A DNA stretch of 52,802 nt from Candidatus Magasanikiibacteriota bacterium (GCA_018661775.1 JABJHO010000051.1:1-52802); one strand, 5' to 3'; shown: positions 7,000 through 25,270, counted from the stretch's first letter. Made by a program: numbers and translations. Notes: generated by a model not told the origin, from the letters alone.

Positions 7000-7003
7000 A
7001 TTG

Positions 7004-8761: not shown

Positions 8762-8762
8762 A

Positions 8763-10220: not shown

Positions 10221-10322
10221 ATACTTGTTTTGGAAGTATAAATAAGGTAATATTAACTTATCAGTAATATAATTTTATCCTTTTTTTAGTAAATTGTCCA
10301 GTCTTAATTAAGTATAATTGTT

Positions 10323-11465
10323 ATGAAAGTAGCGTTTTTTAGCCCATCAGCTGATAAAAAAAATGGTTGGGGGGCTGTTACATCAGAATTATGTGACGCA
10401 TATATAAAATTTTATAAAGATGTGGTTGATTTTGATTTATATTTGCCGAAAAGTGAAAAAAATAAAGAATATATAAAAAGACTAGGGTTTAATGGGAAAA
10501 TACACTTTACTTTACCAGAGTTTGCTTGGTCTTTTAGAAATCCGAAAAGATTATCAAGCTATTTAAGGGGTGGGGCTTTGACCTCTAAGCCAGATTTGAT
10601 TCATGTGTTAGATTTTCCGTATGCTTTTTCAGCTATGGTAAATTCAAAAAATAAAATACCATATATTATTACTTTGTGTGGTACATTCTATAAACCGTTT
10701 AAAAAAATTCCAGATAATTTTTTGTTTGGTAGAACATATAAAAATGCATCTAATATAAATGCAATAAGCGATTTTACACTTTCATCTGCTAAAAAAGAGT
10801 ATAAAATAAATGAAAATAAATTATCTATTGTGCATGCAGGTGTTAATTATGATAGATTTGCTGCACCTGTTGACTTTAATTTTTTAAAAAGTAAGTATGG
10901 TGATAATAAAAAAGCAATTGTTGGGGTGGGTGCGTTGAAAGGTAGAAAGGGTTTTGATATTGTTATCCGTGCCATGAAAGAGGTTTGTCTTGAGGTTCCT
11001 GATGCAATATATGTAATTATTGGTTCTGGAACTGATAAAAATTCATTAAAAAGTGTTGTAAAAGATTTAAAATTAGAAAATAATGTGTTTTTTGCGGGTC
11101 GTGTAAGTGATGATCAGTTACCAGCTTATTTTCACTTTGCAGATGTGTATTGCCACACACCTAGGTATACAGAAGGTGCCTTTGAAGGTTTTGGGATAGT
11201 TTATCTAGAGGCAGGTGCTGCTGGCAAACCTGTTGTAGGAAGTAGGTCGGGTGGAGTGCCTGATGCCATAATTGATGGAAAGACAGGTATTTTAGTGGAT
11301 GAGAATGATGTTGGCGGTACTGCAAAAGCTTTGATAAAAATCTTTAAAGATAATGAATTAGCAAAAAAAATGGGAGAAAATGGTAAAAAATATGCAGAAG
11401 AGCATAAATGGAAGAGTATTGCTAAAAAATATATAGAGCTATATGGCACTTTTGTGGTTAAGTAG
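10323..11465 (+). CDS. GT4-family glycosyltransferase
   Basis: 'EGFGIVYLEAGAAGKPVVGSRSGGVPDAIIDGKTGILV' is the classic GT4 nucleotide-sugar binding region. Confidence 0.8.
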   Translation: MKVAFFSPSADKKNGWGAVTSELCDAYIKFYKDVVDFDLYLPKSEKNKEYIKRLGFNGKIHFTLPEFAWSFRNPKRLSSYLRGGALTSKPDLIHVLDFPYAFSAMVNSKNKIPYIITLCGTFYKPFKKIPDNFLFGRTYKNASNINAISDFTLSSAKKEYKINENKLSIVHAGVNYDRFAAPVDFNFLKSKYGDNKKAIVGVGALKGRKGFDIVIRAMKEVCLEVPDAIYVIIGSGTDKNSLKSVVKDLKLENNVFFAGRVSDDQLPAYFHFADVYCHTPRYTEGAFEGFGIVYLEAGAAGKPVVGSRSGGVPDAIIDGKTGILVDENDVGGTAKALIKIFKDNELAKKMGENGKKYAEEHKWKSIAKKYIELYGTFVVK

Positions 11466-11547
11466 TGGCTACAGAACCTCTTTTTAGGTTTGCATTTTTA
11501 TGTATACATTGCTAATATAAAAGTCATTAAATATATTGATAAAATTT

Positions 11548-12549
11548 ATGTCATTTGATTTTCTAAGAGGTAAGGTGGTTTTAATTACAGGTGGGACTGG
11601 ATCTTTCGGTCAACAATTTGTAAAGACATTGCTTGAAAAAACTGAAGCTAAAAAAATTATTATATTTAGTAGGGATGAATTAAAGCAATCACAGATGATG
11701 GCTACTTTTGCAGACCCGTATGAAAAATTGCGTTTTTTTATTGGAGATATACGTGATTTAGATAGACTACAAAGAGCTTTTAAGGGGGTTGATTATGTTA
11801 TTCACGCAGCAGCTCTTAAGCAGGTTCCTGCACTAGAGTATAACCCTTTAGAGGCGGTTAAGACAAATATATTAGGTACGCAAAATATTATAAATGCTTC
11901 ATTAGATCTGGGTGTAAAAAAAGTACTATTAGTTTCTACTGACAAAGCAGCAAACCCTGCTAATTTGTATGGTGCGACTAAATTATGCGCTGAAAAGCTT
12001 ATAATAAGTAGTAATGTTTATTCGGGTTTTGATTCTGTAAAGTTTAGCGCTGTTAGGTACGGTAATGTTCTAGGTAGTCGTGGTAGTTTACTTCAGGTGA
12101 TTGAAAGGCAACGTGAGAAAGGTGTGATAACCTTAACACATGAAGATATGACTAGGTTTTGGATAACTCTTGATCAAGGTGTGAAACTAGTTTTGAATTC
12201 ATTAGAAAAAATGGTTGGTGGTGAAATTTTTATACCAAAGATATCTAACATGAAAGTAAAAGATTTTATAGAGCATGTTGCACCAGAATGTAGGTTAGAT
12301 GTAGTTGGTATTAGACCAGGAGAAAAGTTGCATGAGATTTTAATTACACCAGAAGAAGGAAGACACACTTTGGAATTTGATGATATTTTTGTAATTTTAC
12401 CAGAATATGATTGGTGGAATCATGACACTCATACTTCTGTTCATTATGGTGACGGAGAGTGTGTTGGTGATGATTACTGCCTTTCAAGTCAAAATGATTC
12501 TAATTGTCTTAGTAAAGAAGGGTTGGATGATCTATTAAGTAAAATATGA
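11548..12549 (+). CDS. pseB: UDP-GlcNAc 4,6-dehydratase (inverting), PseB/FlaA1/CapD type
   Basis: 'KVVLITGGTGSFGQQFVKTLL...IIIFSRDELKQ', 'DKAANPANLYGATKLCAEK' (YxxxK). The track ORF starts at TTG 11536; the ATG at 11548 is preferred. Confidence 0.85.
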   Translation: MSFDFLRGKVVLITGGTGSFGQQFVKTLLEKTEAKKIIIFSRDELKQSQMMATFADPYEKLRFFIGDIRDLDRLQRAFKGVDYVIHAAALKQVPALEYNPLEAVKTNILGTQNIINASLDLGVKKVLLVSTDKAANPANLYGATKLCAEKLIISSNVYSGFDSVKFSAVRYGNVLGSRGSLLQVIERQREKGVITLTHEDMTRFWITLDQGVKLVLNSLEKMVGGEIFIPKISNMKVKDFIEHVAPECRLDVVGIRPGEKLHEILITPEEGRHTLEFDDIFVILPEYDWWNHDTHTSVHYGDGECVGDDYCLSSQNDSNCLSKEGLDDLLSKI

Positions 12550-13670
12550 TACCTTACGGGCGCCAATCAATTAATCAAGATGATATAGACTCTGTTGTTG
12601 AGGTGTTAAGGTCTGATTATCTTACACAAGGTAAAAAAGTGTCTGAGTTTGAAGAAAATTTGGCTAGATATTGTGGTTCAAAATATGCTGTTGCTGTGTC
12701 TAATGGTACTGCTGCTCTACATACTGCTTTTAATGTTATTGGTTTAAAAGAAGGTGATGAATTTATTACTTCACCCCTTACTTTTGTAGCTACATCTAAT
12801 GCTGGTTTTTGGCAGGGTGCAAAACCAGTTTTTGTGGATATAGATCTTGATACTGGGAATATTGATGTGGATAAAATTGAAGAAAATATTACAAGTAAAA
12901 CAAAAGCTATTGTGCCTGTAGATTATACAGGAAGACCTGTGGATTTAGATAGAATTAGAGAGATAGCAAATAAACATAATTTAAGTGTAATAGAAGATGC
13001 GTGTCAGGCACTAGGTGCAGCATACAAAGGTAGTAAAATAGGTTCTATTAGTGACTTAACTGTGTTTAGTTTTCACCCTGTAAAAAATATTACAACAGGT
13101 GAAGGTGGGGCTATTTTAACTAATAGTGTGGAATACTATAAAAAAATGAAGAGGTTTATTACTCATGGAATTACAAAAGAAGGTCTAGATGAAAAACTTG
13201 GTCCTTGGTATTTTGACATGGTTGATTTGGGTGTTAATTACAGGTTAACAGATATGTCCTGTGCTCTTGGTGTCAGTCAGCTTAAAAGATTAGACTCTTT
13301 TGTGGAGAAAAGGTTTGAAATTGCAAAAAGATATAACAAGGCGTTTAAAGATTTTGGAAATATAATTACACCAAAATTAGACACTGATGATATACAATCT
13401 GCTTGGCATTTATATGTAATTAGATTAAAAAAGGGTGTTTCAGAAAAAAGATTAGAAATTTTCAAAAAATTAAGGGAGTCTGGTGTAGGTGTTCATGTGC
13501 ATCACATACCTGTGCACATGCATAATTACTATAAAAATTTGGGGTATAGTTCTGTTGGTTTAGAGAATGCTGAAGATTTTTATAATTCTATTATTTCATT
13601 GCCTTTATATCCAGATTTAAGCCTGGAAGATCAGGATTTTGTGATAGATTCTATAAAAAATATTATATGA
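12546..13670 (+). CDS. pseC: DegT/DnrJ/EryC1 aminotransferase, PseC type
   Basis: 'IPYGRQSINQDDIDSVVEVLRSDYLTQGKKVSEFEENLA' and 'SFHPVKNITTGEGGAI' (PLP lysine). ATGA overlap with pseB. Confidence 0.85.
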   Translation: MIPYGRQSINQDDIDSVVEVLRSDYLTQGKKVSEFEENLARYCGSKYAVAVSNGTAALHTAFNVIGLKEGDEFITSPLTFVATSNAGFWQGAKPVFVDIDLDTGNIDVDKIEENITSKTKAIVPVDYTGRPVDLDRIREIANKHNLSVIEDACQALGAAYKGSKIGSISDLTVFSFHPVKNITTGEGGAILTNSVEYYKKMKRFITHGITKEGLDEKLGPWYFDMVDLGVNYRLTDMSCALGVSQLKRLDSFVEKRFEIAKRYNKAFKDFGNIITPKLDTDDIQSAWHLYVIRLKKGVSEKRLEIFKKLRESGVGVHVHHIPVHMHNYYKNLGYSSVGLENAEDFYNSIISLPLYPDLSLEDQDFVIDSIKNII

Positions 13671-14203
13671 ATTTAATTAAAAAGAAAGATTTAATTGAGG
13701 GTAATAATTTATTTTTATCAGTCTTACTTGAGGAACATGCTACAGATAGATATGCAGGGTGGCTTAATGATAGTTATGTAAATAACTACCTAGAAACAAG
13801 AGAAGTTTCAAAAACAGATTTAGTGAATTATATAAATGAAAAATTTTTAAGCGACAACTCTTTATTTTTTGGTATTTTTTTTAAGGAAAATAGTAAACAT
13901 ATTGGGAATATAAAATTAGAACCAATTGATTTTGATAAAGAACAGGCAACATTAGGAATTATTATAGGTGAAAAAGAGTATTGGGGAAGAGGTCTTGCGA
14001 CAGAGGCAACAAACTTGCTTGTTGATTACGCTTTCAGTGTGTTGGGTCTAAAAGAAGTTCGGCTAGGTGTTGTTTCTGAAAATAAAGCTGCAATAAAAGT
14101 TTATGCAAAGTGTGGATTTAAGGTTTTTGAGATAAAGGAAAAAGCGATTGATCATAATGGAGAAAAATTTGATCAAGTGTTTATGCGTAAATTAAATTAT
14201 TAA
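13667..14203 (+). CDS. GNAT N-acetyltransferase (PseH candidate)
   Basis: 178 aa. 'IGEKEYWGRGLATEATNLLVDYAF' is a GNAT acetyl-CoA motif. It sits directly after pseC with an ATGA overlap. Confidence 0.55.
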   Translation: MNLIKKKDLIEGNNLFLSVLLEEHATDRYAGWLNDSYVNNYLETREVSKTDLVNYINEKFLSDNSLFFGIFFKENSKHIGNIKLEPIDFDKEQATLGIIIGEKEYWGRGLATEATNLLVDYAFSVLGLKEVRLGVVSENKAAIKVYAKCGFKVFEIKEKAIDHNGEKFDQVFMRKLNY

Positions 14204-14212
14204 CTTTGAAAT

Positions 14213-15376
14213 ATGTCTGAAAGAATTATTAGTAACCCAAAAGATCTTGTTAGGTGTGCTAAATGTGTTATGCCAGAGACACAGGAGTCAATTATGTTTA
14301 ATGGTGACGGTGTGTGTAACATTTGTAGAAATGTTGAATTTAAAGATGATAAGATTGACTGGGTGGCTAAAAAAAATGAATTTTTGGATTTAATTAGTAA
14401 ATACAAAGGTAAGTATGAGTATGATTGCATAGTTCCTTTTTCAGGGGGTAAAGATAGTACATATACTTTGTATTCTTTGGTTGTGGATTACGGTCTGAAG
14501 CCATTAGTCGTTTCTTATGATCATCATATGTACAGACCTCAGACTGTAAAAAATAGAGAAAAAACTTTAAAAAAATTAGGTGTAGATTTTGTATCTTATA
14601 GAACAAATTGGCATTTGGTAAAAGATTTAATGAGAGTAGGTTTAGAAAGGAAAGGTAATATATATTGGTATGAAGAGACTGGTATTTTTGCATATCCTAT
14701 GCATATGGCGATTAAATTTAATGTGCCGTTTGTAATTTGGGGGGAACCTTCAGCAGAGTATTCTGCATATTATGATTATGATGATAGTGAAGAGGTTGAT
14801 GAGACAAGGTTTAATATGTTTGTAAATATGGGCATAACAGCCCAGGATATGGTTGGTTTTTTAGACAATAAAGATTTTACATTAAATGACTTGAAATTTC
14901 ATATTTATCCAGATAGAGGTGATTTAAAAAAAATAGGATGTAGGTCTGTGTGTCTTGGTAGTTATCAGCCATGGGATGTAAAAAGACAGGTAGAAGTAAT
15001 TAAAAAAGAAATTGGCTGGGAAGGTGATCATGTTGAGGGTGTATCTCCAGAATATAATTACGAGAAAGTGGAAGATATGTTACAGGGTGTGCAGGATTAT
15101 TTAAAATATATAAAGCGTGGCTATGGTAGAATGAGTCATTTGTTGTCAATTGATATTCGTAATGGTAGATTAACAAGAGAAAAAGCTCTTGAGATGTTGG
15201 ATAAATGGGAGGGGTTGCGCCCTGCAAGCCTAGATGTCTTGTTAGGTTGGCTAGGTATTGATGAGGAAAAGTTTTATGAAATTACAAAACGCCATACTGT
15301 TAAACCTTGGTCTCATAATCCAGAAAATACTAAAAAAGGTGAACCGCTTCCTGATATGAAATATTGGGTAAAATAA
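14213..15376 (+). CDS. N-acetyl sugar amidotransferase (PP-loop; WbuX/WbpG/PseA-like)
   Basis: N-terminal Zn-ribbon 'CAKCVMPETQ...GVCNICRN' followed by the PP-loop 'PFSGGKDSTYTLY'. Confidence 0.8.
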   Translation: MSERIISNPKDLVRCAKCVMPETQESIMFNGDGVCNICRNVEFKDDKIDWVAKKNEFLDLISKYKGKYEYDCIVPFSGGKDSTYTLYSLVVDYGLKPLVVSYDHHMYRPQTVKNREKTLKKLGVDFVSYRTNWHLVKDLMRVGLERKGNIYWYEETGIFAYPMHMAIKFNVPFVIWGEPSAEYSAYYDYDDSEEVDETRFNMFVNMGITAQDMVGFLDNKDFTLNDLKFHIYPDRGDLKKIGCRSVCLGSYQPWDVKRQVEVIKKEIGWEGDHVEGVSPEYNYEKVEDMLQGVQDYLKYIKRGYGRMSHLLSIDIRNGRLTREKALEMLDKWEGLRPASLDVLLGWLGIDEEKFYEITKRHTVKPWSHNPENTKKGEPLPDMKYWVK

Positions 15377-15383
15377 TAAAAAT

Positions 15384-15995
15384 ATGATTGTGGTAGTTGA
15401 TTATGGTATGGGGAATTTACACTCTATTGCCAAAGCATTGGAGTGTGTGGGGGGTAATGTTTTGGTTAGTAGTAAAGGTGAGGATATTAAAAAAGCTGAT
15501 AAAATAGTCTTGCCTGGTGTTGGTGCGTTTAGAGATGGAGTTGCCAATTTAAAAAAAAGAGGATTAGATAAAATACTTATTAGTGAGGTTGAAAAGAAAA
15601 AGCCGTTACTTGGAATTTGTTTGGGAATGCAGCTTTTAGCTAATAAAAGCTATGAATTTGGAGAATATGAAGGTCTTAGTTTAATAGATTCAGAAGTAAA
15701 GAAATTTAATGAAAGTATCCAATTAAGGGTCCCTCACATGGGATGGAATAATATCGAAATATTAAAGGATCACGTTTTATTAAAGGGAGTAAAAAATAAT
15801 TCTGATTTTTATTTTGTTCATAGTTATTTTATGGAATGTAAAAATAATGAAGATGTTTTTGCTGAATGTAGTTATGGTAGTAACTTTCCAGTGATTGTGG
15901 CTAAAGACAATATATTTATTACACAATTTCACCCAGAAAAGAGTCAAAAAAATGGTTTAAAAATATTAAAAAATTTTGCTGGTTGGAATATGTAA
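15384..15995 (+). CDS. HisH-like glutamine amidotransferase subunit (WbuY-like)
   Basis: 'VVVDYGMGNLHSIAKAL', catalytic Cys in 'LLGICLGMQLL', and 'FVHSY...QFHPEKS'. Confidence 0.85.
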   Translation: MIVVVDYGMGNLHSIAKALECVGGNVLVSSKGEDIKKADKIVLPGVGAFRDGVANLKKRGLDKILISEVEKKKPLLGICLGMQLLANKSYEFGEYEGLSLIDSEVKKFNESIQLRVPHMGWNNIEILKDHVLLKGVKNNSDFYFVHSYFMECKNNEDVFAECSYGSNFPVIVAKDNIFITQFHPEKSQKNGLKILKNFAGWNM

Positions 15996-15999
15996 ACAT

Positions 16000-16758
16000 A
16001 TGCTTAAAAACAGAGTTATACCAATTCTTTTGCTAAAAGATGGTAGAGCGATAAAAACAATTCAATTTGATAAGTATAGAGATGTTGGTGATCCTGTAAC
16101 AACAGCCAGAATATATAATGCGCAACGAGCTGATGAACTTATGTTTTTGGATATATCTGCAAGCAGCGAAGGAAGGAAGACATTGTGTAATATAGTAAGG
16201 GAGGTTGCTGAGGAATGTTTTATGCCTTTATTGGTTGGTGGAGGTGTTTCAAGTATTGATGATATCAGGTTGCTTTTATGTCAAGGGGCTGATAAAGTAA
16301 TTATAAATACGGCCGCGTATGAAATACCTGGATTTATAAAAAGAGCATCTGAAAAATTTGGATCTTCTACCATTGTTGCTTCAATAGATGTTAGAAAAAA
16401 TAAAGAAAAAATGTACGAGGTTTATGTTCGTAGTGGTAATTACTCAACTGGATTGAATCCTGTTGAGTGGGCAAGGTCCTTGGTAAATGAAGGCGCTGGG
16501 GAAATAGTGATAACTTTAATTGATAGAGAGGGGGTTATGAAAGGCTTAGATATAGATCTTATAAAATCAATTACTGAATCTGTAAATGTTCCGGTAATTG
16601 CTTCGGGTGGTGTTGGTAGTTTAAAAGATTATCAACTAGGTTTTGAGGATGGTGGAGCTCAGGCAGTGGCAGCAGGTAGTATATTTCATTTTACAGACCA
16701 AAATCCAATTATGACACGAAATTATCTTTATAATAATAAGGTTAACATAAGACCATAA
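16000..16758 (+). CDS. HisF-like cyclase/synthase subunit (WbuZ-like)
   Basis: 'RVIPILLLKDGRAIKTIQF...GDPVTTARIYNAQRADELMFLDISAS' and 'VIASGGVGS'. The track starts at TTG 15976; the ATG at 16000, just after the hisH-like stop, is preferred. Confidence 0.85.
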   Translation: MLKNRVIPILLLKDGRAIKTIQFDKYRDVGDPVTTARIYNAQRADELMFLDISASSEGRKTLCNIVREVAEECFMPLLVGGGVSSIDDIRLLLCQGADKVIINTAAYEIPGFIKRASEKFGSSTIVASIDVRKNKEKMYEVYVRSGNYSTGLNPVEWARSLVNEGAGEIVITLIDREGVMKGLDIDLIKSITESVNVPVIASGGVGSLKDYQLGFEDGGAQAVAAGSIFHFTDQNPIMTRNYLYNNKVNIRP

Positions 16759-16769
16759 AAATAAAAAAT

Positions 16770-17849
16770 ATGAATACATTTACAATAAAAACACCAAAAG
16801 GAGAAAGAAAAATCGGTCCAGGGGAGCCGTGTTTTATTATTGCAGAAGTTTCTGCCAACCATAATCAGAAATTTGAGAAGGCCGTTGAGATTATAAAAAA
16901 AACAGCAGAGGCTGGTGCAGATGCAGTAAAGTTTCAAACATACACACCGGATACACTTACTATTGATTGTGATAAGCCGGCCTTTGTTTTTGAGGGAGAT
17001 GAGAATCCTTGGAAAGGGCAAAAGCTTTATGATTTGTACAAGACCGCTTATACACCTTGGGATTGGCTGCCAAAGCTTAAAGAAGAAGCAGAAAAAGTTG
17101 GGTTAGTATTTTTTTCTACAGATTACGACATAACTGCTGTCGATTTTATGGAAGAAATGGGTGTTGAATTACACAAAATTGGTTCTTACGAGGTTACACA
17201 TATACCATTATTAAAACGGGTTGCTGAGACAGGAAAGCCAGTAGTCCTATCAATCGGTTATGCATCTTTAGAAGAGGCAACTTTAGCTATATATACTCTA
17301 AAAGAAAATGGGACGAAAGATTTGGTAGTTATGCATTGTACTACAACATATACAGAGAATCCTGAGATGGATACGATGAATTTACATAATATCCAAGATA
17401 TATCAAAACGTTTTGACGTTATTTCTGGATTTTCTGAAAATGCTGGTGGGGTTGATAGTACTGTGCAGGCCGTATTGGCTGGAGCACGAGTAATAGAAAA
17501 GCATGTTATAGATACAAAAGAAGAGTCAAGTCCTGATTCAAAATTTTCAATTGATACAAATGAGCTTGCTGAGTTAGTTAAAAAAGTTAGAGAAGCAGAA
17601 GTGTCACTTGGAAAAGTAAACTATGGGCCAGCGAATGAAAAGGAAGTGTATAACATGAAGCATATGAGGAAATCTCTATTTATTGTTGAAGATGTGAGAG
17701 CAGGAGATGTTTTTACAAAAGAGAATCTTCGGGTTATCCGTCCCGGTATTGGTCTTTCTCCAAAACATATGGATGAAATTTTGGGAAAAAAAGCTTCTAG
17801 TGATGTTGAAAGGGGAGAGGCGATGACTTGGGATTTTGTTAAGAGATAG
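16770..17849 (+). CDS. pseI: NeuB-family nonulosonate synthase, PseI type, with SAF domain
   Basis: 'CFIIAEVSANHNQKFEKAVEIIKKTAEAGADAVKFQTYTPDTLT', plus a C-terminal SAF-like segment 'GDVFTKENLRVIRPGIGL'. Confidence 0.8.
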   Translation: MNTFTIKTPKGERKIGPGEPCFIIAEVSANHNQKFEKAVEIIKKTAEAGADAVKFQTYTPDTLTIDCDKPAFVFEGDENPWKGQKLYDLYKTAYTPWDWLPKLKEEAEKVGLVFFSTDYDITAVDFMEEMGVELHKIGSYEVTHIPLLKRVAETGKPVVLSIGYASLEEATLAIYTLKENGTKDLVVMHCTTTYTENPEMDTMNLHNIQDISKRFDVISGFSENAGGVDSTVQAVLAGARVIEKHVIDTKEESSPDSKFSIDTNELAELVKKVREAEVSLGKVNYGPANEKEVYNMKHMRKSLFIVEDVRAGDVFTKENLRVIRPGIGLSPKHMDEILGKKASSDVERGEAMTWDFVKR

Positions 17850-18125
17850 GTTGATTTACTTGTGTTGAAGCGATGTTTATGATGAAGGTTTTATCAATTC
17901 TGAAAGATCATTAAGCACTTCAGAAAATGATTTTATACAAATTAAACCAAAAGAACATACTTTTTTTATTACCTTTGAAGAAGAGGGGTCACCATTAGAT
18001 ATAAAAAATATAGAAATAAGGAATGCTTTTTCTGATGAGAAAATTTTACATACTACTAGAAGTCTTGATTATTCAGCAAGCCTTTGATGTCTGAAAGATT
18101 GAAAATATTTTAATTATTTTTTATT

Positions 18126-18884
18126 ATGATTAAGTACGGATTAAAATTGTGGTCAAATAATACAACCTGGTTTGAAGAAGCTGTGTCTTTGTATAAGAAG
18201 GGTGCTTATGATTTTATAGAGATCTATAGTAACAGTACAATTCCACACGATTACGCTGCCTTAGAAAAGATTAGACATCTACCTGTGTTCGGTACTCATA
18301 TTGGTCATTTAGATAAGGCAGGGTTTCATAAGTTTTTTTTGACTGACGATCAGTTTGAAGCTTGGAAGATGACTACTGACATCGCAGATTTTTTTGATGT
18401 AAAGCATATTATTGTTCATCCGGCCATTACCCATACAGCGGAAACATTTTGGGAAAATTTGGCTAAACTAAATGACGAGAGAATTTTGGTGGAAAATATG
18501 CCTGTGAATAGTCCATTTGGCGATCCAGATAGGGAATTTGGAACTAAGCTTGAAGACATTGGACATATTCGAGAAAAAAAAGAGATGTGCCTTGATGTAG
18601 AAAAAGCAGTGAAAGCATCTATTTATCATAAAGTACCTTATAAAGAATTTTTGAAAAAAGCAGTAGAAATTATGAAACCAAGCTACGTTCATATTTCTGG
18701 TGGGAATATTACAGACCCAATTGATCAGCATACAGATTTATGGGAAGCAGAATTTGATGTTGCTTGGGTTAGAGATTTACTTGAAAATCAAGAACAAGAT
18801 ATTTACCTTGTTTTTGAAACACCAAAGAACGGACAAGATTTGCAGAATGATTTAAAAAATATGGAGTATTTTAAAACTGTATGA
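18126..18884 (+). CDS. Xylose-isomerase-like TIM-barrel protein (sugar-phosphate isomerase/epimerase family?)
   Basis: 252 aa. The spaced motifs 'HIIVHPA', 'LVENMP', 'CLDVEKA' and 'YVHISGG' resemble the AP_endonuc_2/TIM-barrel family. Weak assignment. Confidence 0.4.
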   Translation: MIKYGLKLWSNNTTWFEEAVSLYKKGAYDFIEIYSNSTIPHDYAALEKIRHLPVFGTHIGHLDKAGFHKFFLTDDQFEAWKMTTDIADFFDVKHIIVHPAITHTAETFWENLAKLNDERILVENMPVNSPFGDPDREFGTKLEDIGHIREKKEMCLDVEKAVKASIYHKVPYKEFLKKAVEIMKPSYVHISGGNITDPIDQHTDLWEAEFDVAWVRDLLENQEQDIYLVFETPKNGQDLQNDLKNMEYFKTV

Positions 18885-19528
18885 TTATTACACTTTTGAT
18901 GGATAATCCTAAAAGTTGGTTTTATCCATTTGCTGAAAATTTAAAGGAAAAATTAGGTGGACTAGGTCACGAAGTTGAACTCGTTCATACTACAGACGAC
19001 ATAAAAGATGGAGAGCTAGCGTTTTTTTTGAGTTGTGAGAAAATTATAAAGCAACCAATTAGAGATAAAAATAAGCACAATCTTGTTGTACACTCTAGCC
19101 CCCTGCCTGCTGGGAAAGGTTGGTCTCCGATGACATGGACAATACTAGCTGGAGAAAATGTTATAACAAGTACGCTATTTGAAGCAGTAGACGCCGTGGA
19201 TGCTGGAGTTATATACATACAAAATTCAATTACCTTTGAGGGTGGTGAATTACTTCCAGAATTACATGCTGCCCAGGGGCAAGCAATTGTAGATATTATT
19301 ATAGAATTCTTATCAGCTTATCCTGAGGTGATAGAACGAGGAGAAGAACAAGTTAGCGAAGAAAGTTTTTATGAAAGACGACGTCCAGAGGACAGTAAAT
19401 TAGACCTAAATAAAACAATTGCTGATCAGTTTAATCTATTGCGAGTTGTAGATAATGAAAAATATCCAGCATTTTTTAATTATAAAGGTAGTAAATATAT
19501 TTTGAAAATCTATAAAGATAACAATTGA
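18881..19528 (+). CDS. Formyltransferase-family protein (Fmt N-domain-like)
   Basis: 'NLVVHSSPLPAGKGWSPMTWTILAGE...VDAVDAGVIY' parallels the 'HxSLLPxxRG...D.G' core of formyltransferases, with Lys in place of Arg. ATGA overlap with the upstream gene. Confidence 0.5.
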   Translation: MIITLLMDNPKSWFYPFAENLKEKLGGLGHEVELVHTTDDIKDGELAFFLSCEKIIKQPIRDKNKHNLVVHSSPLPAGKGWSPMTWTILAGENVITSTLFEAVDAVDAGVIYIQNSITFEGGELLPELHAAQGQAIVDIIIEFLSAYPEVIERGEEQVSEESFYERRRPEDSKLDLNKTIADQFNLLRVVDNEKYPAFFNYKGSKYILKIYKDNN

Positions 19529-19531
19529 GTT

Positions 19532-20617
19532 ATGCCATTGTTTAATGCCGACAATTTTTCAAATTCAGTTATTAGTTATAATGATGTTGATTGTGATAAA
19601 AATTTATTCAACAAGATTTTGAATAATTATTTTAGCGAATATAATATTAAGGGTGTAAGCCAGGTAAATCGCTCAGAGATATATTCAGAAAATTATAAGG
19701 TTATTTTGCAAATTGATGGAAATGATAAAAATATTTTATTGAGAAAATATAATTCTTTAGAAGAAAGTCAAATTAAGTTTTATCTGTTGTTTTTAAAAAA
19801 TTTACAACAAAAAGGTGTGCCTGTTGTAGATGTTGTGAAGACAAAAAATGATTTATTTTATGTTAATGTAGGTGGTTCTCAGTATGCGGTATTTGACTTT
19901 GTTGAGTCAGATCATTTTAAGGCTAGTGAGGAAGCTTTTATTTCAGTTGCAAGGTCGGTAGCGAAAATGCATAAAGCTTTTTCGGGTGTTGATACTGAAA
20001 TTATTAAAAAGATTGATGAATTAAGTCAAAATGGTGAGGCATATTTTAATAAAATTAAATTTTACTCAATAAAAGATTTTAATGATATAGAAAAAATTAT
20101 TAATAATAAAAAAAATCTTTCTATAGAAGATAAGTGTGTATTAGACAAATTACCTCTTTTTATAGAAACAGTTGGGTTAATTGAAAAAGAAAGTATTAAT
20201 TTAGGAAAATTAAATAAAGGTTTAATACATTCTGATCTACACCCACATAATTTATTATTAGATGGTGAGTCTGTAAAAGCAATAATTGATTTTGATGGAA
20301 TGAGGGTTAGTCAGGTGGCTCGTGATGTGGCGTTTGCAATTTATCGTTTAGGTAGGCAATTTTTTGCAAATGGTGTTTTATCAGTAGATAAGGATAAAGG
20401 TAATGATTTGGTAAAACTATTCGTTGGTGAGTATGAAAAAATAAATTTAATTAGTAAAGAAGAGAAGCGATTAATGCCATTGTTAGTTAAGGATGAGTTT
20501 ATTAGAAAGATATTATTTGTATTGAATGGGGTGTATAAAGAGGATAATCACACTTGGGCAAAAGATTTGCCTAAGTTTCTTGTATCTATTGGTGAGATAA
20601 ATTATTTTTGGAATTAG
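19532..20617 (+). CDS. APH/choline-kinase-family small-molecule kinase
   Basis: Brenner motif 'LIHSDLHPHNLLLD' followed by 'IIDFDGM'. Confidence 0.65.
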   Translation: MPLFNADNFSNSVISYNDVDCDKNLFNKILNNYFSEYNIKGVSQVNRSEIYSENYKVILQIDGNDKNILLRKYNSLEESQIKFYLLFLKNLQQKGVPVVDVVKTKNDLFYVNVGGSQYAVFDFVESDHFKASEEAFISVARSVAKMHKAFSGVDTEIIKKIDELSQNGEAYFNKIKFYSIKDFNDIEKIINNKKNLSIEDKCVLDKLPLFIETVGLIEKESINLGKLNKGLIHSDLHPHNLLLDGESVKAIIDFDGMRVSQVARDVAFAIYRLGRQFFANGVLSVDKDKGNDLVKLFVGEYEKINLISKEEKRLMPLLVKDEFIRKILFVLNGVYKEDNHTWAKDLPKFLVSIGEINYFWN

Positions 20618-20629
20618 TTGTAACATATT

Positions 20630-21901
20630 ATGAATAAAAAAGATTCTTTAAAAGAAATATTAAATTACACACCTTCTGGTGCGCAGACATTAAGTAAAAA
20701 TCCTACCCAGTATGTGGTTGGTGTAACACCTTTAACTATTGATAGGGCTGAGGGTGTGTATCTTTGGGATGCTGAAGGTAATAAATATTTAGATACTTTA
20801 CTCGCTTTGGGTCCAATGATTTTTGGTTATGCAAATAAAAGGATTAATAAAGTTGTTATAGATCAGATCGATAAGGGCGCGATATATTCTTTGCCATCTA
20901 AGTATGAATTACAATTAGCTAAACTGTTAAAGAGTGTTGTGCCTTGTGCAGAAATGAGTAAATTTGTTTTAGATGGAAATGATGCTACAACTGGAGCTGT
21001 GCGTTTGGCTAGGCATATTACTGGGCAAGATCATGTTGCTAAATGTGGTTATCATGGTTACCAAGACTGGAGTATCTGTACAAAGGAAGGTAGAAATAAT
21101 GGAGTTCCTGAAATAACAAAAAGTCTAACGCATGATTTTAAGTACAATGATATTGATTCATTGGAGAAAATTTTTAAAGAATATCCAGGTAAAATATCTG
21201 CGGTAATATTGGAGCCTGTTTCAGCTGAAAAACCAAAGGATAATTTTTTACAAAGAGTAAAAGAGGTTGCCCATAAAAATGGTGCATTATTAATCTTTGA
21301 TGAAATGGTTACCGGCTTTCGATGGTCTCTTGGTGGGGCGCAAGAATATTTTGATGTTATTCCTGATTTAGCTTGTTTTAGCAAAGCTATTTCAGGTGGT
21401 TATCCAATAGCGATAATTTCAGGAAAAAAAGAATACATGTCTCGTATGGACGAGGTCTTTGTTTCCACTACTTTCTCAGGTTCGGTACTTGGTCTTGTGG
21501 CTGCAATTGAAACAATAAATATGATGAAAGAGTTTGGTGATGTGCAAAAATATATGCATGATCTTGGTGATTATTTTATAAACGAAGGTAATAAAATAGT
21601 AGAAGAAAATAATTTACCAGTTGAATTTACAGGATATGGCCCACACCCTGTAATGGTAATAAAAATTGATGATGAATATGAAAATAGATTATTTAAGTCC
21701 TTTATATATCAAGAAATGAATAAGGCTGGTATACTTTTTAGCAGTTCTTTAATGATTGGGTATGCACACAAGCAAAAGCATATTGATTTTATTTTAGAAA
21801 AATTTAGAGAAGTTTGCGTCAGTCTTTCTGCAATAAAAGATTTGAAAGATATTCAAGATTTACTTGATGGTGACGTGGTTGCGCCTCGTACAGTAAGATA
21901 A
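20630..21901 (+). CDS. Class-III PLP aminotransferase (glutamate-1-semialdehyde aminomutase-like)
   Basis: 'ALLIFDEMVTGFRWSLGGAQ', and 'CFSKAISGGYPIA' with a candidate PLP lysine. Confidence 0.8.
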   Translation: MNKKDSLKEILNYTPSGAQTLSKNPTQYVVGVTPLTIDRAEGVYLWDAEGNKYLDTLLALGPMIFGYANKRINKVVIDQIDKGAIYSLPSKYELQLAKLLKSVVPCAEMSKFVLDGNDATTGAVRLARHITGQDHVAKCGYHGYQDWSICTKEGRNNGVPEITKSLTHDFKYNDIDSLEKIFKEYPGKISAVILEPVSAEKPKDNFLQRVKEVAHKNGALLIFDEMVTGFRWSLGGAQEYFDVIPDLACFSKAISGGYPIAIISGKKEYMSRMDEVFVSTTFSGSVLGLVAAIETINMMKEFGDVQKYMHDLGDYFINEGNKIVEENNLPVEFTGYGPHPVMVIKIDDEYENRLFKSFIYQEMNKAGILFSSSLMIGYAHKQKHIDFILEKFREVCVSLSAIKDLKDIQDLLDGDVVAPRTVR

Positions 21902-21903
21902 TT

Positions 21904-22527
21904 ATGTATATGAATAATATAAAAACAATAATCTTTGATTGGGGTGGTGTTATGTGTAGTGAGGGTGAACCTTTTTCTAGTTTAGCTCTACAGAAGAAGG
22001 TTGGTAAAAAACCAGATGAAATGGTGTTGGATGTTTTAGATATATATAATGATTTTTATCGTGGGGTTTATAATGATAAAGAATTTTGGAATTTAGTGAA
22101 AAAACACTATAGATTGGAGGAAGATGATAGTATAAGTAATAGTGAATTAAACCAAGCATATCTGAAATCATATTTTTTTTGGCCAGAAATGTTAGATTTT
22201 GTAAAAAGCTTGAAAGGTAAATATAAAGTTGGTTTATTGTCTGATATGAATAAAATTATGCGTGATCATATACAAAAAAAACATACTTTGTCCGAAGTTT
22301 TTCAAGAGCAAATGTATAGTTGTGATAAAAATATTAATCTAATCAAAAATGACGGACCAAAAATATTTGAATTAATGATGAAAAAAATGGGTGAGGATAG
22401 TCCGCAATCTTGTTTATTTATTGATAATTCACAAAATAAAATAAATGTAGCAAAAAAATTTGGTATGCACACACTTTTATTTAAAGATGTTGATAGTTTT
22501 TTAGAAGATACTAAAGATTATTTGTAG
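21904..22527 (+). CDS. HAD-superfamily hydrolase/phosphatase
   Basis: Motif I variant 'IIFDWGGVM', 'VGLLSDMN', and 'CLFIDNSQNKINVAKKFGM' (motif IV region). Confidence 0.65.
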   Translation: MYMNNIKTIIFDWGGVMCSEGEPFSSLALQKKVGKKPDEMVLDVLDIYNDFYRGVYNDKEFWNLVKKHYRLEEDDSISNSELNQAYLKSYFFWPEMLDFVKSLKGKYKVGLLSDMNKIMRDHIQKKHTLSEVFQEQMYSCDKNINLIKNDGPKIFELMMKKMGEDSPQSCLFIDNSQNKINVAKKFGMHTLLFKDVDSFLEDTKDYL

Positions 22528-22528
22528 T

Positions 22529-23521
22529 ATGAAAAATATATTAGTTATAGGTGGGGGTTCTATAGGAAAACGCCATATGCGTAATCTTTTAAGTATTGGT
22601 GAGAAAAATGTTTTTGTAGTTGAGCCAAACGAGAAAAGAGCTTTGGAAGAGATTGAAAAGAAACACAATATAAAAACATTTCGCTCTTTAGAGGAGGCTT
22701 ATGATGAGATAAATTTTGACATAGCTTTTGTGTGTAGTCCATCAGTTTTTCATATTGAAAATGCAATGTTTTGTGCAGAAAAGGGGTCTGACTTATTTAT
22801 TGAAAAGCCTTTGTCCCATAATTTGGAGAAGGTTGATGAGTTGTTAAAAATAGTAAAAGATAAGAAGTTAATTACTATGATAGGTAGTAATTGGAAATTT
22901 TATCCCTTATTTAAAAAGATGAAAGAGTTAATAGATGGTAAAGCAATTGGTAAAATTTTTTCAGCTAGGTGTCAATTTGGGCAATACTTACCAGGTTGGC
23001 ATCCATGGGAAGATTATAAAAATGGTTATAGTGCTAATAAAAAATTAGGTGGTGGGGTTTTACTTGACTCTCATGAATTTGATTACCTCACATGGTTTTT
23101 AGGTGGGGTAAAAAAACTAGCGTGTTTTGCAGACAAAGTAAGTGATTTAGAAATTAATACTGAAGATGTTGCAGAAACCATCTTACAGTTTGAAAGTGGT
23201 GTGATAGCAGAAATACATGTGGATTATTTACAGAGATTTTATCAAAGAAATTTTGAGTTTTTTGGTGAGTTGGGTACAATTAAGTGGGATACGAATGAAA
23301 AGAGTGTGGAATTGTTGGTTATTAATAAAGAAAAAGAGGTCTTTAATTTAAATAAAGAGTATGATATAAATGATATGTATATTGATGAAGTAAGGCATTT
23401 TTTAGATAGTGTGCAGAAACGTCAGGATAGTTGTACAAATATTGAGCGTGGTGCGGAGGTTTTGAGATTGATATGTGCCTCAAAGGAGTCCTCGTTGAAT
23501 AACTCTGTATTTATTAATTAA
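22529..23521 (+). CDS. Gfo/Idh/MocA-family NAD(P) oxidoreductase
   Basis: Rossmann N-terminus 'ILVIGGGSIGKRHMRNL' and 'LFIEKPLSHNLEK' (EKP motif). Confidence 0.75.
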   Translation: MKNILVIGGGSIGKRHMRNLLSIGEKNVFVVEPNEKRALEEIEKKHNIKTFRSLEEAYDEINFDIAFVCSPSVFHIENAMFCAEKGSDLFIEKPLSHNLEKVDELLKIVKDKKLITMIGSNWKFYPLFKKMKELIDGKAIGKIFSARCQFGQYLPGWHPWEDYKNGYSANKKLGGGVLLDSHEFDYLTWFLGGVKKLACFADKVSDLEINTEDVAETILQFESGVIAEIHVDYLQRFYQRNFEFFGELGTIKWDTNEKSVELLVINKEKEVFNLNKEYDINDMYIDEVRHFLDSVQKRQDSCTNIERGAEVLRLICASKESSLNNSVFIN

Positions 23522-23526
23522 ATTAT

Positions 23527-24522
23527 ATGTTAATACAAAAAAATAAAGTAACCATAGTTTGTGAAATGTCACAAACTTATGAAGGAAAATTTGATGTTGC
23601 AAGTAAATTAGTAGGCGCGGCAATAGACGCAAAAGCTGATGCTATTAAGTTTCAAGTGTTCAAAGCAGATGAGCTTGGTACAAAGGATTATAAACATTAT
23701 GATCTTTTTACTTCACTAGAATTTACACCAGAGCAATGGGGTGATCTTATAAAACAAGCGCAAGACGGTGGAATATTGGCTTTTGCTGATGTGTTTGGGT
23801 TGGAGAGCGCTCAAATGCTTATTGAAAAAAATATTGATGGATTTAAAATCCACCCGACCGATATAAAAACCCCGCCCCTACTGGAATTTTTGGCAAAGTC
23901 TGGTAAACCATTGATGCTTTCAGTTGGTGGTAGTCATAGGGAGGAAATTGAAAAAGCAATTTCTATATTGAATGAAAATGGTGCAAAAGAAGTGGTGTTG
24001 ATGCATGGCTTCCAGAGTTACCCTACATTAGTGGAGCATACAAATTTAAATAAAATGAGTCTTTTTAAAGATGATTTTGGCTTACCTGTTGGATTTGCTG
24101 ATCATATAGATGGTGATCATTCTATGAGGTATGACTTATGTGCGATGGCATTGGCTATGGGTGCAAGTGTGTTAGAGAAACATATTACTCTAGATAGAAA
24201 ATTGAAAATGGAAGATTATGAGTCAGCGCTTGATCCTAACGACTTTAAGGATTTTGTTGAAAGAATGCGTGAACTTGAGGGCGCGCTTGGTGAAAAAAGC
24301 CTTAAATTAACAGAGCCAGAAATTGTTTATCGTAAAAGCACTAAAAAACACATTGTAGCTGCTGTTGATTTAACCGCTGGTACAGTTTTGAGAGAGGAAA
24401 ATATTTTTATGAAACGCACTGTGGAAGAGTATGAATTTCTAGACAGAGAGCAGATTGTTGGAAAAACTCTGATATCAGAATTAAAAAAAGATCAAGTTGT
24501 TAGGTTGGATAATCTTAAGTAA
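23527..24522 (+). CDS. Divergent NeuB-family (sialic-acid-synthase-like) enzyme with SAF domain
   Basis: NeuB-like 'AIDAKADAIKFQVF', 'GFKIHPTD', 'MLSVGGS', 'VLMHGFQSYPT', 'GFADHIDG' and 'VLEKHITLDR'. The usual N-terminal 'AE(I/V)(G/S)xNHxG' is replaced by 'VCEMSQTYEGK'. Confidence 0.7.
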   Translation: MLIQKNKVTIVCEMSQTYEGKFDVASKLVGAAIDAKADAIKFQVFKADELGTKDYKHYDLFTSLEFTPEQWGDLIKQAQDGGILAFADVFGLESAQMLIEKNIDGFKIHPTDIKTPPLLEFLAKSGKPLMLSVGGSHREEIEKAISILNENGAKEVVLMHGFQSYPTLVEHTNLNKMSLFKDDFGLPVGFADHIDGDHSMRYDLCAMALAMGASVLEKHITLDRKLKMEDYESALDPNDFKDFVERMRELEGALGEKSLKLTEPEIVYRKSTKKHIVAAVDLTAGTVLREENIFMKRTVEEYEFLDREQIVGKTLISELKKDQVVRLDNLK

Positions 24523-24523
24523 T

Positions 24524-25270
24524 ATGCGCTTAGTTTGTACCTTGGCCTGCCGTGTTCAGTCAACACGTCTGTATGGTAAGCCATTACAGTTATTGAGTAT
24601 TGAAGAAAGTCTAAGTATTATAGACTATTTATTGGACCATTTAGGGAGTGTCACTCAAATTGATGAAACTGTTTTAGCTATAAGTGATGGTAAAGAGAAT
24701 ACTCCCTTTATTCGCCTAGCTCAAAGAAGGGGGTTGCGGTATGTCATTGGTGATGAAAGGGATGTTTTGGGAAGATTAATTGCTGCCGGAAAAAAGGGTG
24801 AGGCAGATATTGTTTTTCGTGTAACAAGTGAATGCCCATTTATTTATATGGACGGTTTGAAAGAGGCTTTGCAAAAACATTTGGATAACAATGCATCTCT
24901 TACCGTGATTGAAGGTCTGCCAGAGGGTGCTTATTTTGAATTGATTAATTTAGAAGATTTAGAGGCTGAACATGAGAAAGGTGAAGATAGACACAGGAGT
25001 GAGTTGTGTACTTTGTATATAAATGAAAATCCAGATAAGTTTAAAATTCAGACACTACCTGTTCCAGACAAATCTTTAAAGCGTCCAGATATACGTATCA
25101 CAGTTGATTACCCTGAGGATTTGATAGTGGCTCGTGAATTGTATGAGGCTTTAAAGAAAGAAGGGCAATTTGTTGGTATAAAAGAAATTATTGAATATAT
25201 GGATGCACACCCTAAATTAAATGAAGTTAATAATTGGATTGATGCAGGAAAGGGGAGGATTTGGGATTAG
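24524..25270 (+). CDS. SpsF-type cytidylyltransferase (CMP-sugar synthetase family)
   Basis: 'RLVCTLACRVQSTRLYGKPLQLL' resembles the SpsF/acylneuraminate cytidylyltransferase N-terminus. The track starts at TTG 24497; the ATG at 24524, 2 nt after the upstream stop, is preferred. Confidence 0.7.
   Translation: MRLVCTLACRVQSTRLYGKPLQLLSIEESLSIIDYLLDHLGSVTQIDETVLAISDGKENTPFIRLAQRRGLRYVIGDERDVLGRLIAAGKKGEADIVFRVTSECPFIYMDGLKEALQKHLDNNASLTVIEGLPEGAYFELINLEDLEAEHEKGEDRHRSELCTLYINENPDKFKIQTLPVPDKSLKRPDIRITVDYPEDLIVARELYEALKKEGQFVGIKEIIEYMDAHPKLNEVNNWIDAGKGRIWD

Follow-up and report, generated by a model that had tools for sequence, protein, structure and literature searches.

The locus described here lies on a contig of 52,802 nucleotides (the window; GCA_018661775.1 JABJHO010000051.1:1-52802) of a Candidatus Magasanikiibacteriota bacterium, contig C17 of a 981-kb genome that was estimated to be 100% complete. 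Eight genes (g1 to g8) downstream of a pseudaminic-acid (Pse) core in this window were found to consist of three separable, recombining modules, namely g1 with or without g2, the set g3 to g6, and a divergent NeuB-family synthase (g7, hereafter NeuB') together with a cytidylyltransferase (CT; g8). A preliminary description of the locus had treated the eight genes as one sub-cluster of non-canonical type. The non-textbook character of the locus stood, and the self-contained second pathway that had been favoured gave way to three shuffled modules that appear to complete and tailor the Pse pathway. The features are as follows.

11536-17849, + strand: upstream Pse core, containing PseB, PseC, a GNAT protein, the WbuX/HisH/WbuZ acetamidino trio and PseI
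18126-18884, + strand: g1, endonuclease IV (Endo-IV)-like metal-dependent TIM barrel (AP_endonuc_2 superfamily)
18881-19528, + strand: g2, short formyltransferase-like protein, 215 aa
19532-20617, + strand: g3, APH-fold small-molecule kinase
20630-21901, + strand: g4, class-III aminotransferase (AT3), dependent on pyridoxal 5'-phosphate and similar to glutamate-1-semialdehyde (GSA) aminomutase
21904-22527, + strand: g5, HAD-IA hydrolase (phosphatase)
22529-23521, + strand: g6, Gfo/Idh/MocA (GFO) NAD(P)-dependent sugar oxidoreductase
23527-24522, + strand: g7 (NeuB'), divergent NeuB-family synthase with SAF domain
24497-25270, + strand: g8, SpsF-type CTP_transf_3 cytidylyltransferase

All eight open reading frames (ORFs) are present on the + strand at these coordinates and are as tightly packed as had been described, with junctions ranging from a 4-nt overlap up to a 12-nt gap. 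As homologues of g8 have 248 aa, its true start is probably the ATG at 24524, one base past the g7 stop. The family calls for g1 to g8, which were checked with Pfam and NCBIfam profiles carrying curated equivalog cut-offs, likewise hold on the evidence of these profiles, of the g1 family and of the structure models.

Comparison with about 60 related loci separated the modules. The six-gene order kinase, AT3, HAD, GFO, NeuB' and CT (g3 to g8) is kept in six other loci, belonging to two Magasanikbacteria metagenome-assembled genomes (MAGs; L001 and L002), a gammaproteobacterial MAG (L003) and three further metagenomic contigs. The L003 cassette is part of a Pse cluster, with WbuX on one side and PseI on the other. 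Both g1 and g2 are outside the conserved block and travel separately, so the eight genes do not behave as the single unit that had been proposed. The nearest syntenic relatives, L028/L029 and L038, carry the order PseI, g1, kinase, AT3, HAD, GFO, CT and contain neither NeuB' nor g2; L028/L029 run on into two CotH genes and a VTC gene, as the window does downstream. The cytidylyltransferases of L028/L029 and L038 belong to a different clade (type B) from g8, and the NeuB'-CT pair of the window stands where L028 and L038 have the type-B enzyme. At about 50% NeuB' identity, the module consists of PseB, DegT, AT3, an aldo-keto reductase (AKR), NeuB' and CT, with the kinase absent; these loci also hold a second, PseI-type NeuB, a GNAT gene and usually a true PseG. 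The position of g6 is taken by an AKR in the more distant loci.

The set g3 to g6 was thus also met apart from NeuB'. Besides L028/L029 and L038, a genome of the candidate phyla radiation (CPR), G161, combines GFO, AT3, HAD, kinase and CT with one NeuB only, PseI being located about 7 kb downstream and g1 being absent. G281, G312 and G053 carry AT3 in their Pse loci, no more than a few kb from the sole NeuB and directly adjoining it only in G281. Homologues of AT3 with 44-48% identity are very often CT::AT3 fusions of about 685 aa, found in one-NeuB loci. Since the same set plus a CT occurs with PseI and without NeuB' in the closest syntenic relatives, we infer that g3 to g6 tailor a Pse-type sugar and work with the Pse pathway and an activating enzyme, rather than being dedicated suppliers of NeuB'. 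The earlier proposal of a NeuB' precursor made by the kinase, phosphatase, dehydrogenase and transaminase is weakened by L028/L029, L038, G161 and the CT::AT3 fusions, and the comparative data agree better with its stated alternative, in which the Pse-type sugar from the upstream genes is decorated.

The individual members of this set are assigned to broad families. The g3 product matched APH at 54 bits and homoserine-kinase models at 48-62 bits, all under cut-off, and its catalytic motifs HSDLHPHN and DFD are invariant among 7 orthologues. In the AlphaFold (AF2) model of g3 (predicted local distance difference test score, pLDDT, 90.9), the nearest structure is the homoserine kinase 2ppq and the next is an N-acetylhexosamine 1-kinase; for this modelled structure, the fold search narrows the fold and does not by itself decide the function. 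The g4 product matched Aminotran_3 at 158 bits, with PRK06209 ('GSA aminomutase') as the best model at 320 bits against a cut-off of 486, and its neighbours in the PDB are GSA aminomutases, PctV and C-6' sugar aminotransferases. For g5, Hydrolase scored 45 bits and HAD-1A3 60 bits, motif I reads FDWGGV, and a match to glucose-1-phosphatase is weak (E = 4.8e-5). The g6 product matched three GFO_IDH_MocA domains, and the models for inositol 2-dehydrogenase and for UDP-N-acetylglucosamine (UDP-GlcNAc; UDP, uridine diphosphate) 3-dehydrogenase remained under cut-off.

The same activities could instead form a side-chain factory. Its product, from kinase, AT3, oxidoreductase and phosphatase, would be a small phosphorylated compound (an amino acid, a hydroxy acid or an amino alcohol) that is linked to an amine or carboxylate of Pse and then loses its phosphate, following the logic of Campylobacter Cj1435-Cj1438, which yield a serinol-phosphate amide. 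Homoserine kinases are indeed the best matches of g3 in both sequence and structure, and class-III aminotransferases act mostly on small aldehydes and amines. Relatives also often have a PylC-like ATP-grasp ligase and a second HAD gene directly upstream of the kinase (the P0005 contig, L012 and L009). In the window, both of these genes are absent and g1/g2 occupy the position upstream of the kinase. We consider the side-chain explanation quite unlikely, as the window carries no ligase, acyl carrier protein or coenzyme A ligase for the attachment, the AKR-type versions of the module lack kinase and HAD, and the repeated fusion of AT3 to CT points to the sugar itself as the substrate.

The third module starts with NeuB', which combines a NeuB domain (189 bits) with SAF and scores 220 bits against NeuB_NnaB (cut-off 400) and 175 bits against PseI (cut-off 340). 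In the NeuB family, catalytic roles of E25, E134 and E234 and metal-binding roles of His residues have been described (PMC8208679). NeuB' keeps the equivalents of E25, K53, K129, H215, E234, H236 and D247 and has Asp at 134 (E134D), which is the state of archaeal and eukaryotic synthases. Clade-specific changes include QTY for xNH, KIHPTD for KIASxE, HGFQ for HCxS and an 8-aa insert, and the Ser positions for the phosphate of phosphoenolpyruvate (PEP) are altered. Judged by these residues, g7 looks like a catalytically competent second synthase. Fusions of the NeuB'::CT type exist among relatives. Homologues of NeuB' all came from MAGs or metagenomes, with no cultured host found, and among 400 Patescibacteria genomes a close NeuB' was found in the window's own genome only. 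The idea that NeuB' substitutes for PseG was ruled out, as a true PseG sits in the NeuB' loci L009, L014, L015 and L016.

NeuB-like domains also occur in longer frames of 602-662 aa (L069 5042-7021, L031 11407-13215 and L034 10541-12529), in which the catalytic residues are partly lost. In the L069 domain, K129 is replaced by Asn and E234 by Ser, and the C-terminal part of the L031 and L034 frames is a cytidylyltransferase. Because the catalytic motifs are partly degenerate in L031, L034 and L069, synthase function is not guaranteed across the NeuB-like::CT lineage, and this degeneration hints at a non-catalytic role of the domain in some lineages.

The g8 product matched CTP_transf_3 at 39.5 bits and, in the PDB, the Leptospira cytidylyltransferase 6oew; its homologues are labelled SpsF by the Joint Genome Institute (JGI). 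In a genome-wide search, g8 was the sole KdsB/NeuA-type cytidylyltransferase (CTP_transf_3) of the 981-kb genome. The sole other match to CTP_transf_3 is weak and belongs to a 298-aa MobA/IspD-like protein (C22 9133-9450; L004 1135-2031, - strand). The window accordingly counts two NeuB homologues and one CTP_transf_3 gene, the same numbers as in the preliminary description. The clade of g8, whose members always adjoin NeuB' or are fused to it, stands by itself with 100/99 support; the CTs in other Pse loci of CPR bacteria and those in CT::AT3 and CT::TIM fusions fall outside it. Bacillus subtilis SpsE/SpsF likewise pair a NeuB-family synthase with a CT of SpsF type, as in g7-g8.

With kinase, AT3, HAD, GFO, NeuB' and CT side by side, an independent second route to a nonulosonic acid via phosphorylated sugars may be conceived, which was the main idea of the preliminary description. 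The kinase would phosphorylate a free hexosamine, g6 and g4 would aminate the sugar phosphate, NeuB' would condense the product with PEP before or after dephosphorylation by the HAD enzyme, and g8 would make the sugar activated with cytidine monophosphate (CMP). The logic is that of the animal GNE-NANS-NANP-CMAS route and of Bacteroides Kdn-9-P. All six enzyme types that are needed are adjacent, in an order kept in the six other loci; NeuB' keeps its catalytic residues, including the Asp134 of eukaryotic and archaeal synthases, and has CT-fused relatives; the kinase model resembles N-acetylhexosamine 1-kinase, and the HAD protein has its weak glucose-1-phosphatase match. A kinase and a HAD phosphatase are shared with the animal NANS/NANP/CMAS route, whereas here the kinase is of the APH fold, there is no 2-epimerase, NeuB' is under all curated cut-offs, and kinase and HAD also occur without NeuB' (L028, L038 and G161). 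The kinase-AT3-HAD-GFO-CT set stands near PseI and lacks NeuB' in G161 and the nearest syntenic loci, the module versions at about 50% NeuB' identity do without the kinase, and NeuB' was never found without PseB/PseC/PseI-type neighbours. The genome also lacks a UDP-GlcNAc 2-epimerase for the supply of N-acetylmannosamine (ManNAc), and if g8 served NeuB' only, the product of PseI would have no activating enzyme. Such a phosphorylated-sugar route is therefore unlikely in our view.

In the Pse core upstream, PseB (446 bits; TIGR03589, cut-off 408), PseC (495 bits; TIGR03588, cut-off 424) and PseI (390 bits; TIGR03586, cut-off 340) all pass as equivalogs. The GNAT gene in the PseH position (13667-14203) scored 50 bits against the TIGR03585 cut-off of 93; WbuX passed its cut-off with 339 bits, and WbuZ, at 294 bits, fell slightly under 299.7. 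For PseG, the UDP-sugar hydrolase of the glycosyltransferase-B (GT-B) fold, TIGR03590 gave genome-wide merely a 21-bit match to a 378-aa ORF outside the locus, which we take to be probably the homologous glycosyltransferase MurG, and a local PseG hidden Markov model (HMM) found none in the window. The genome had no match to PseF (TIGR03584) at E <= 1, and the profile search for a NeuC/LegG-type epimerase (Epimerase_2) found none in the genome. No NCBIfam equivalog reached its cut-off for any of g1 to g8 either, which bears out the earlier statement that the set matches no textbook route to N-acetylneuraminic acid (Neu5Ac), Pse or legionaminic acid (Leg). Compared with the canonical CMP-Pse pathway of Campylobacter jejuni and Helicobacter pylori (PseB, PseC, PseH, PseG, PseI and PseF), the locus shares the PseB, PseC and PseI equivalogs and has a GNAT protein in the PseH position, and its expected end product is likewise a CMP-activated Pse-type sugar. 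It differs in that the genome lacks PseG and PseF, the CT is SpsF-type, and g1 to g7 are without textbook counterpart.

The PseI of the window (16770-17849) reads GFSENAGG where C. jejuni PseI has GLSDHSFG, the first metal-binding His (the His215 equivalent) being replaced by Asn. The pattern S(D/E)N at the same site was also observed in the PseI of L003, L038 and L031. From these residues, S(D/E)N enzymes could be a metal-independent or differently metallated PseI subgroup.

The first module supplies a candidate for the missing PseG step. The g1 product itself has no Pfam match, and its family (392 members) is assigned to AP_endonuc_2, a xylose-isomerase-like TIM barrel; the AF2 model of g1 is a TIM barrel with pLDDT 92.8. 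Residues H58, H98, E123, D157, H189, H202 and E231 are invariant in the family. In the profile search, the family had MJ1311 as the closest match (5e-16), followed by endonuclease IV structures (E = 3e-14 to 1e-9), and it aligned the HAP, HPG, EN, CLDxxH, HxxD, DxH and ETP motifs with those of endonuclease IV. We take these aligned motifs to be the carriers of the trinuclear-metal ligands of endonuclease IV (Nfo). As with g3, the fold search narrows the fold of the g1 model and leaves its function undecided.

The genomic setting of g1 is more specific. A metagenome scan for g1 returned 56 loci, and co-occurrence was counted in the 27 of them that are at least 7 kb long. PseI was present in 25 of these 27 loci, mostly directly upstream of g1, and PseG in one, whose g1 homologue (25% identity) is among the two most distant. 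When the window and three other loci were added (n = 31), PseG accompanied g1 in 1/31 loci versus 4/11 g1-free Pse loci (Fisher p = 0.013, ignoring phylogeny). The PseG HMM recovered all five independent CPR PseG genes (5/5), and g1 was in none of their loci (0/5). Fusions join members of the g1 family to GNAT, formyltransferase, cytidylyltransferase and NeuB. In about 25 CPR genomes, NeuB carries a C-terminal g1-like TIM barrel in a protein of about 630 aa (for example, G098:C5 32897-34714; L022 6886-8766, - strand), and none of these genomes has PseG. Since g1 adjoins PseI, is almost never found with PseG and lies in a genome without PseG, we infer that it is a candidate non-orthologous replacement of PseG, a phosphoesterase acting on the UDP-sugar. 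Endonuclease IV and MJ1311 share with g1 the fold and the aligned motifs as its best profile matches, whereas the g1 family is in sugar loci and fusions with no DNA-repair context and the g1 subfamily is one His short. The setting of g1 is solely in nonulosonic-acid loci, which speaks against a role in DNA repair.

Within the same module, g2 matched Formyl_trans_N weakly (28 bits) and the formyltransferase part of ArnA at 59 bits, and it keeps the His (HSSPLP..KG) and Asp (DAG) motifs. A TIM::formyltransferase fusion (P0326) is a Rosetta-stone link between g1 and g2. Orthologues of g2 (64-67% identity) come after PseI or g1 in G281, L031 and L034. By its motifs and neighbours, g2 is a probable N-formyl or N-acyl transferase for a sugar amino group.

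Taken together, we favour a model in which the three modules, with the upstream PseB-PseC-GNAT-WbuXYZ-PseI set, make one CMP-activated, heavily N-substituted Pse-type sugar, possibly with a second variant; our confidence in it falls a little short of an even chance. In this model, g1, as an Endo-IV-like metallo-phosphoesterase, would free the 6-deoxy-hexose from UDP (the PseG step), and g2 would formylate or acylate a sugar amine. The g6 enzyme would then oxidise a secondary hydroxyl of the nonulosonic acid, with C8 favoured by analogy with ElaA, and g4 would turn the resulting C8 methyl ketone into an amine, giving a 5,7,8-triamino-type acid comparable to the 8-amino sugar of Tenacibaculum. 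As a best guess, and as the weakest part of the model, g3 would attach a temporary phosphate handle, possibly in anomeric position, and g5 would take it off. The products of PseI and NeuB' would both be activated by g8, since it is the only CMP-nonulosonate synthetase in the genome and in view of the fusions.

Two known systems resemble the tailoring module. Structural, docking and knockout work led to the proposal that ElaA, a Gfo/Idh/MocA protein found with the cytidylyltransferase ElaB, oxidises CMP-Leg5,7Ac2 at its C8 hydroxyl (PMC13656337); among characterised proteins this is the nearest precedent. In the ElaA-ElaB-ElaC system of Acinetobacter baumannii KL49 and Vibrio vulnificus, which epimerises CMP-Leg5,7Ac2 at C8, GFO is beside CT, as it is here with g7 alone between g6 and g8, and a GFO or AKR gene next to a cytidylyltransferase recurs in related loci. 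In contrast to ElaABC, which has the short-chain dehydrogenase/reductase (SDR) ElaC, the locus has a class-III aminotransferase, an extra kinase and HAD, and a Pse- rather than Leg-type backbone. With a class-III transaminase of omega type in the place of ElaC, the ketone at C8 would become an amine. Among the PDB sequence matches of g6, no entry named ElaA could be identified. The second system is that of the Aeromonas pse islands, whose group I has an aldo-keto reductase and a class-III aminotransferase between pseC, pseF and pseG/pseI, with some subgroups lacking PseG and carrying a HAD-IA hydrolase (PMC7874193). These polar-flagellin islands differ in having no second NeuB, APH kinase or Endo-IV-like barrel, and an AKR where the locus has Gfo/Idh/MocA. 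A 376-Da Pse derivative of Aeromonas was dropped as a clue to the product, as it comes from a group II strain and not from the AKR/AT3 group I.

An oxidoreductase and a pyridoxal-phosphate enzyme could also remodel the sugar by epimerising C8 or C7 or by swapping an amine for a hydroxyl, which would lead to an 8-epi-, acinetaminic- or fusaminic-type acid. ElaA/ElaC do epimerise C8 via a keto intermediate, epimerases and racemases are found within the class-III fold (the g4 PDB matches include GenB2 and isoleucine 2-epimerase), and aldo-keto reductases usually reduce carbonyls. Epimerisation of a hydroxyl needs no transaminase, however, g4 is nearest to aminomutase and transaminase members rather than racemases, and amine-capping enzymes (formyltransferase, ATP-grasp and GNAT) go with the module, so this remodelling seems very doubtful.

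Returning to the amination model, several points weigh against it. At the equivalent of His182, which is His in endonuclease IV and in most members of the g1 family, g1 and its own subfamily carry Lys (ExK, not xxH, after CLD), and Foldseek puts ketose 3-epimerases level with endonuclease IV for g1. The phyletic counts for g1 and PseG are not phylogenetically independent, and seven Pse loci have neither PseG nor g1, so other replacements of PseG must exist. In g2, the Asn-x-His motif is shifted, with the Asn at position -4 relative to the His instead of -2, and the N-terminal subdomain is short, about 44 residues preceding a region before which the model has about 80. Whether oxidation and amination take place at C8, at C4 or at a carbon of the hexose is guessed by analogy. 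A kinase and a phosphatase have no necessary role in a scheme that tailors a CMP-sugar, and the AKR-type versions of the module are without both; the second synthase would be without explanation if a single sugar is made. The literature searches on this gene combination and on CPR with pseudaminic acid yielded only the Aeromonas genomic survey and a Legionella comparison, and no functional work on these genes or close homologues was found in them.

An 8-amino-3,5,7,8,9-pentadeoxy-manno-nonulosonic acid occurs in Flexibacter (Tenacibaculum) maritimus (PMC3210612), and the model may be carried further in two respects that would have to hold jointly. The g1 family would be a new class of UDP-sugar hydrolases that replaces PseG in many Pse loci and is often synthase-fused in CPR. 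The oxidoreductase/AT3/CT unit would be the missing route to tri-amino (8-amino-8-deoxy) nonulosonic acids, of which the Tenacibaculum maritimum acid is an example, extended here by a NahK-like kinase and a sugar-phosphatase-like HAD, with NeuB' and its own CT clade as a pair specialised for a variant sugar. That both are true together is somewhat unlikely.

Nonulosonic acids, among them the sialic-acid-like pseudaminic acid of bacteria, are carried on flagella, pili, S-layers and capsules and influence recognition of the cell by hosts and phages, and several natural ones (8-amino, 8-epi-Pse and fusaminic types) are without known biosynthesis. The locus shows extra genes relevant to such sugars as separable modules. 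That about 14 kb of a 981-kb CPR genome is spent on the sugar suggests that it is important for an episymbiotic lifestyle.

Positions 19532-25270 of the window and 5999-11748 of the gammaproteobacterial L003 share 70% nucleotide identity over 5.2 kb, which suggests that the module is traded across phyla. At the protein level, identity is 68-78% for g4, g6, g7 and g8, 51% for g3 and 49% for g5. The L003 cluster holds an IS200 transposase, and the likeness reflects either cross-phylum transfer or a binning error. L003 has neither PseG nor a g1-type TIM barrel; a DUF218 protein (L003 11758-12372) is located between its cytidylyltransferase and PseI and is one further candidate for a PseG replacement.

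In the window, a GT4 glycosyltransferase is also part of the gene run directly upstream, with the Pse core, and two CotH proteins, a VTC protein and DUF4956 lie 3' of g8. The paralogue search found no paralogues of the cassette genes elsewhere in the genome. The glycan island (window positions 1-31600) has a GC content of 32.0% versus 39.1% for the genome, below the 5th percentile of 5-kb windows, and the remaining part of the window has 41%. Between PseI and g1, positions 17850-18125 form a non-coding gap of 276 bp, the sole long gap in the run from 11.5 to 25.3 kb. The start codon of g1 overlaps the end, at 18127, of a sigma-70-like site (TTGAAA-17-TATTAT), which from its sequence may be a leaderless internal promoter.

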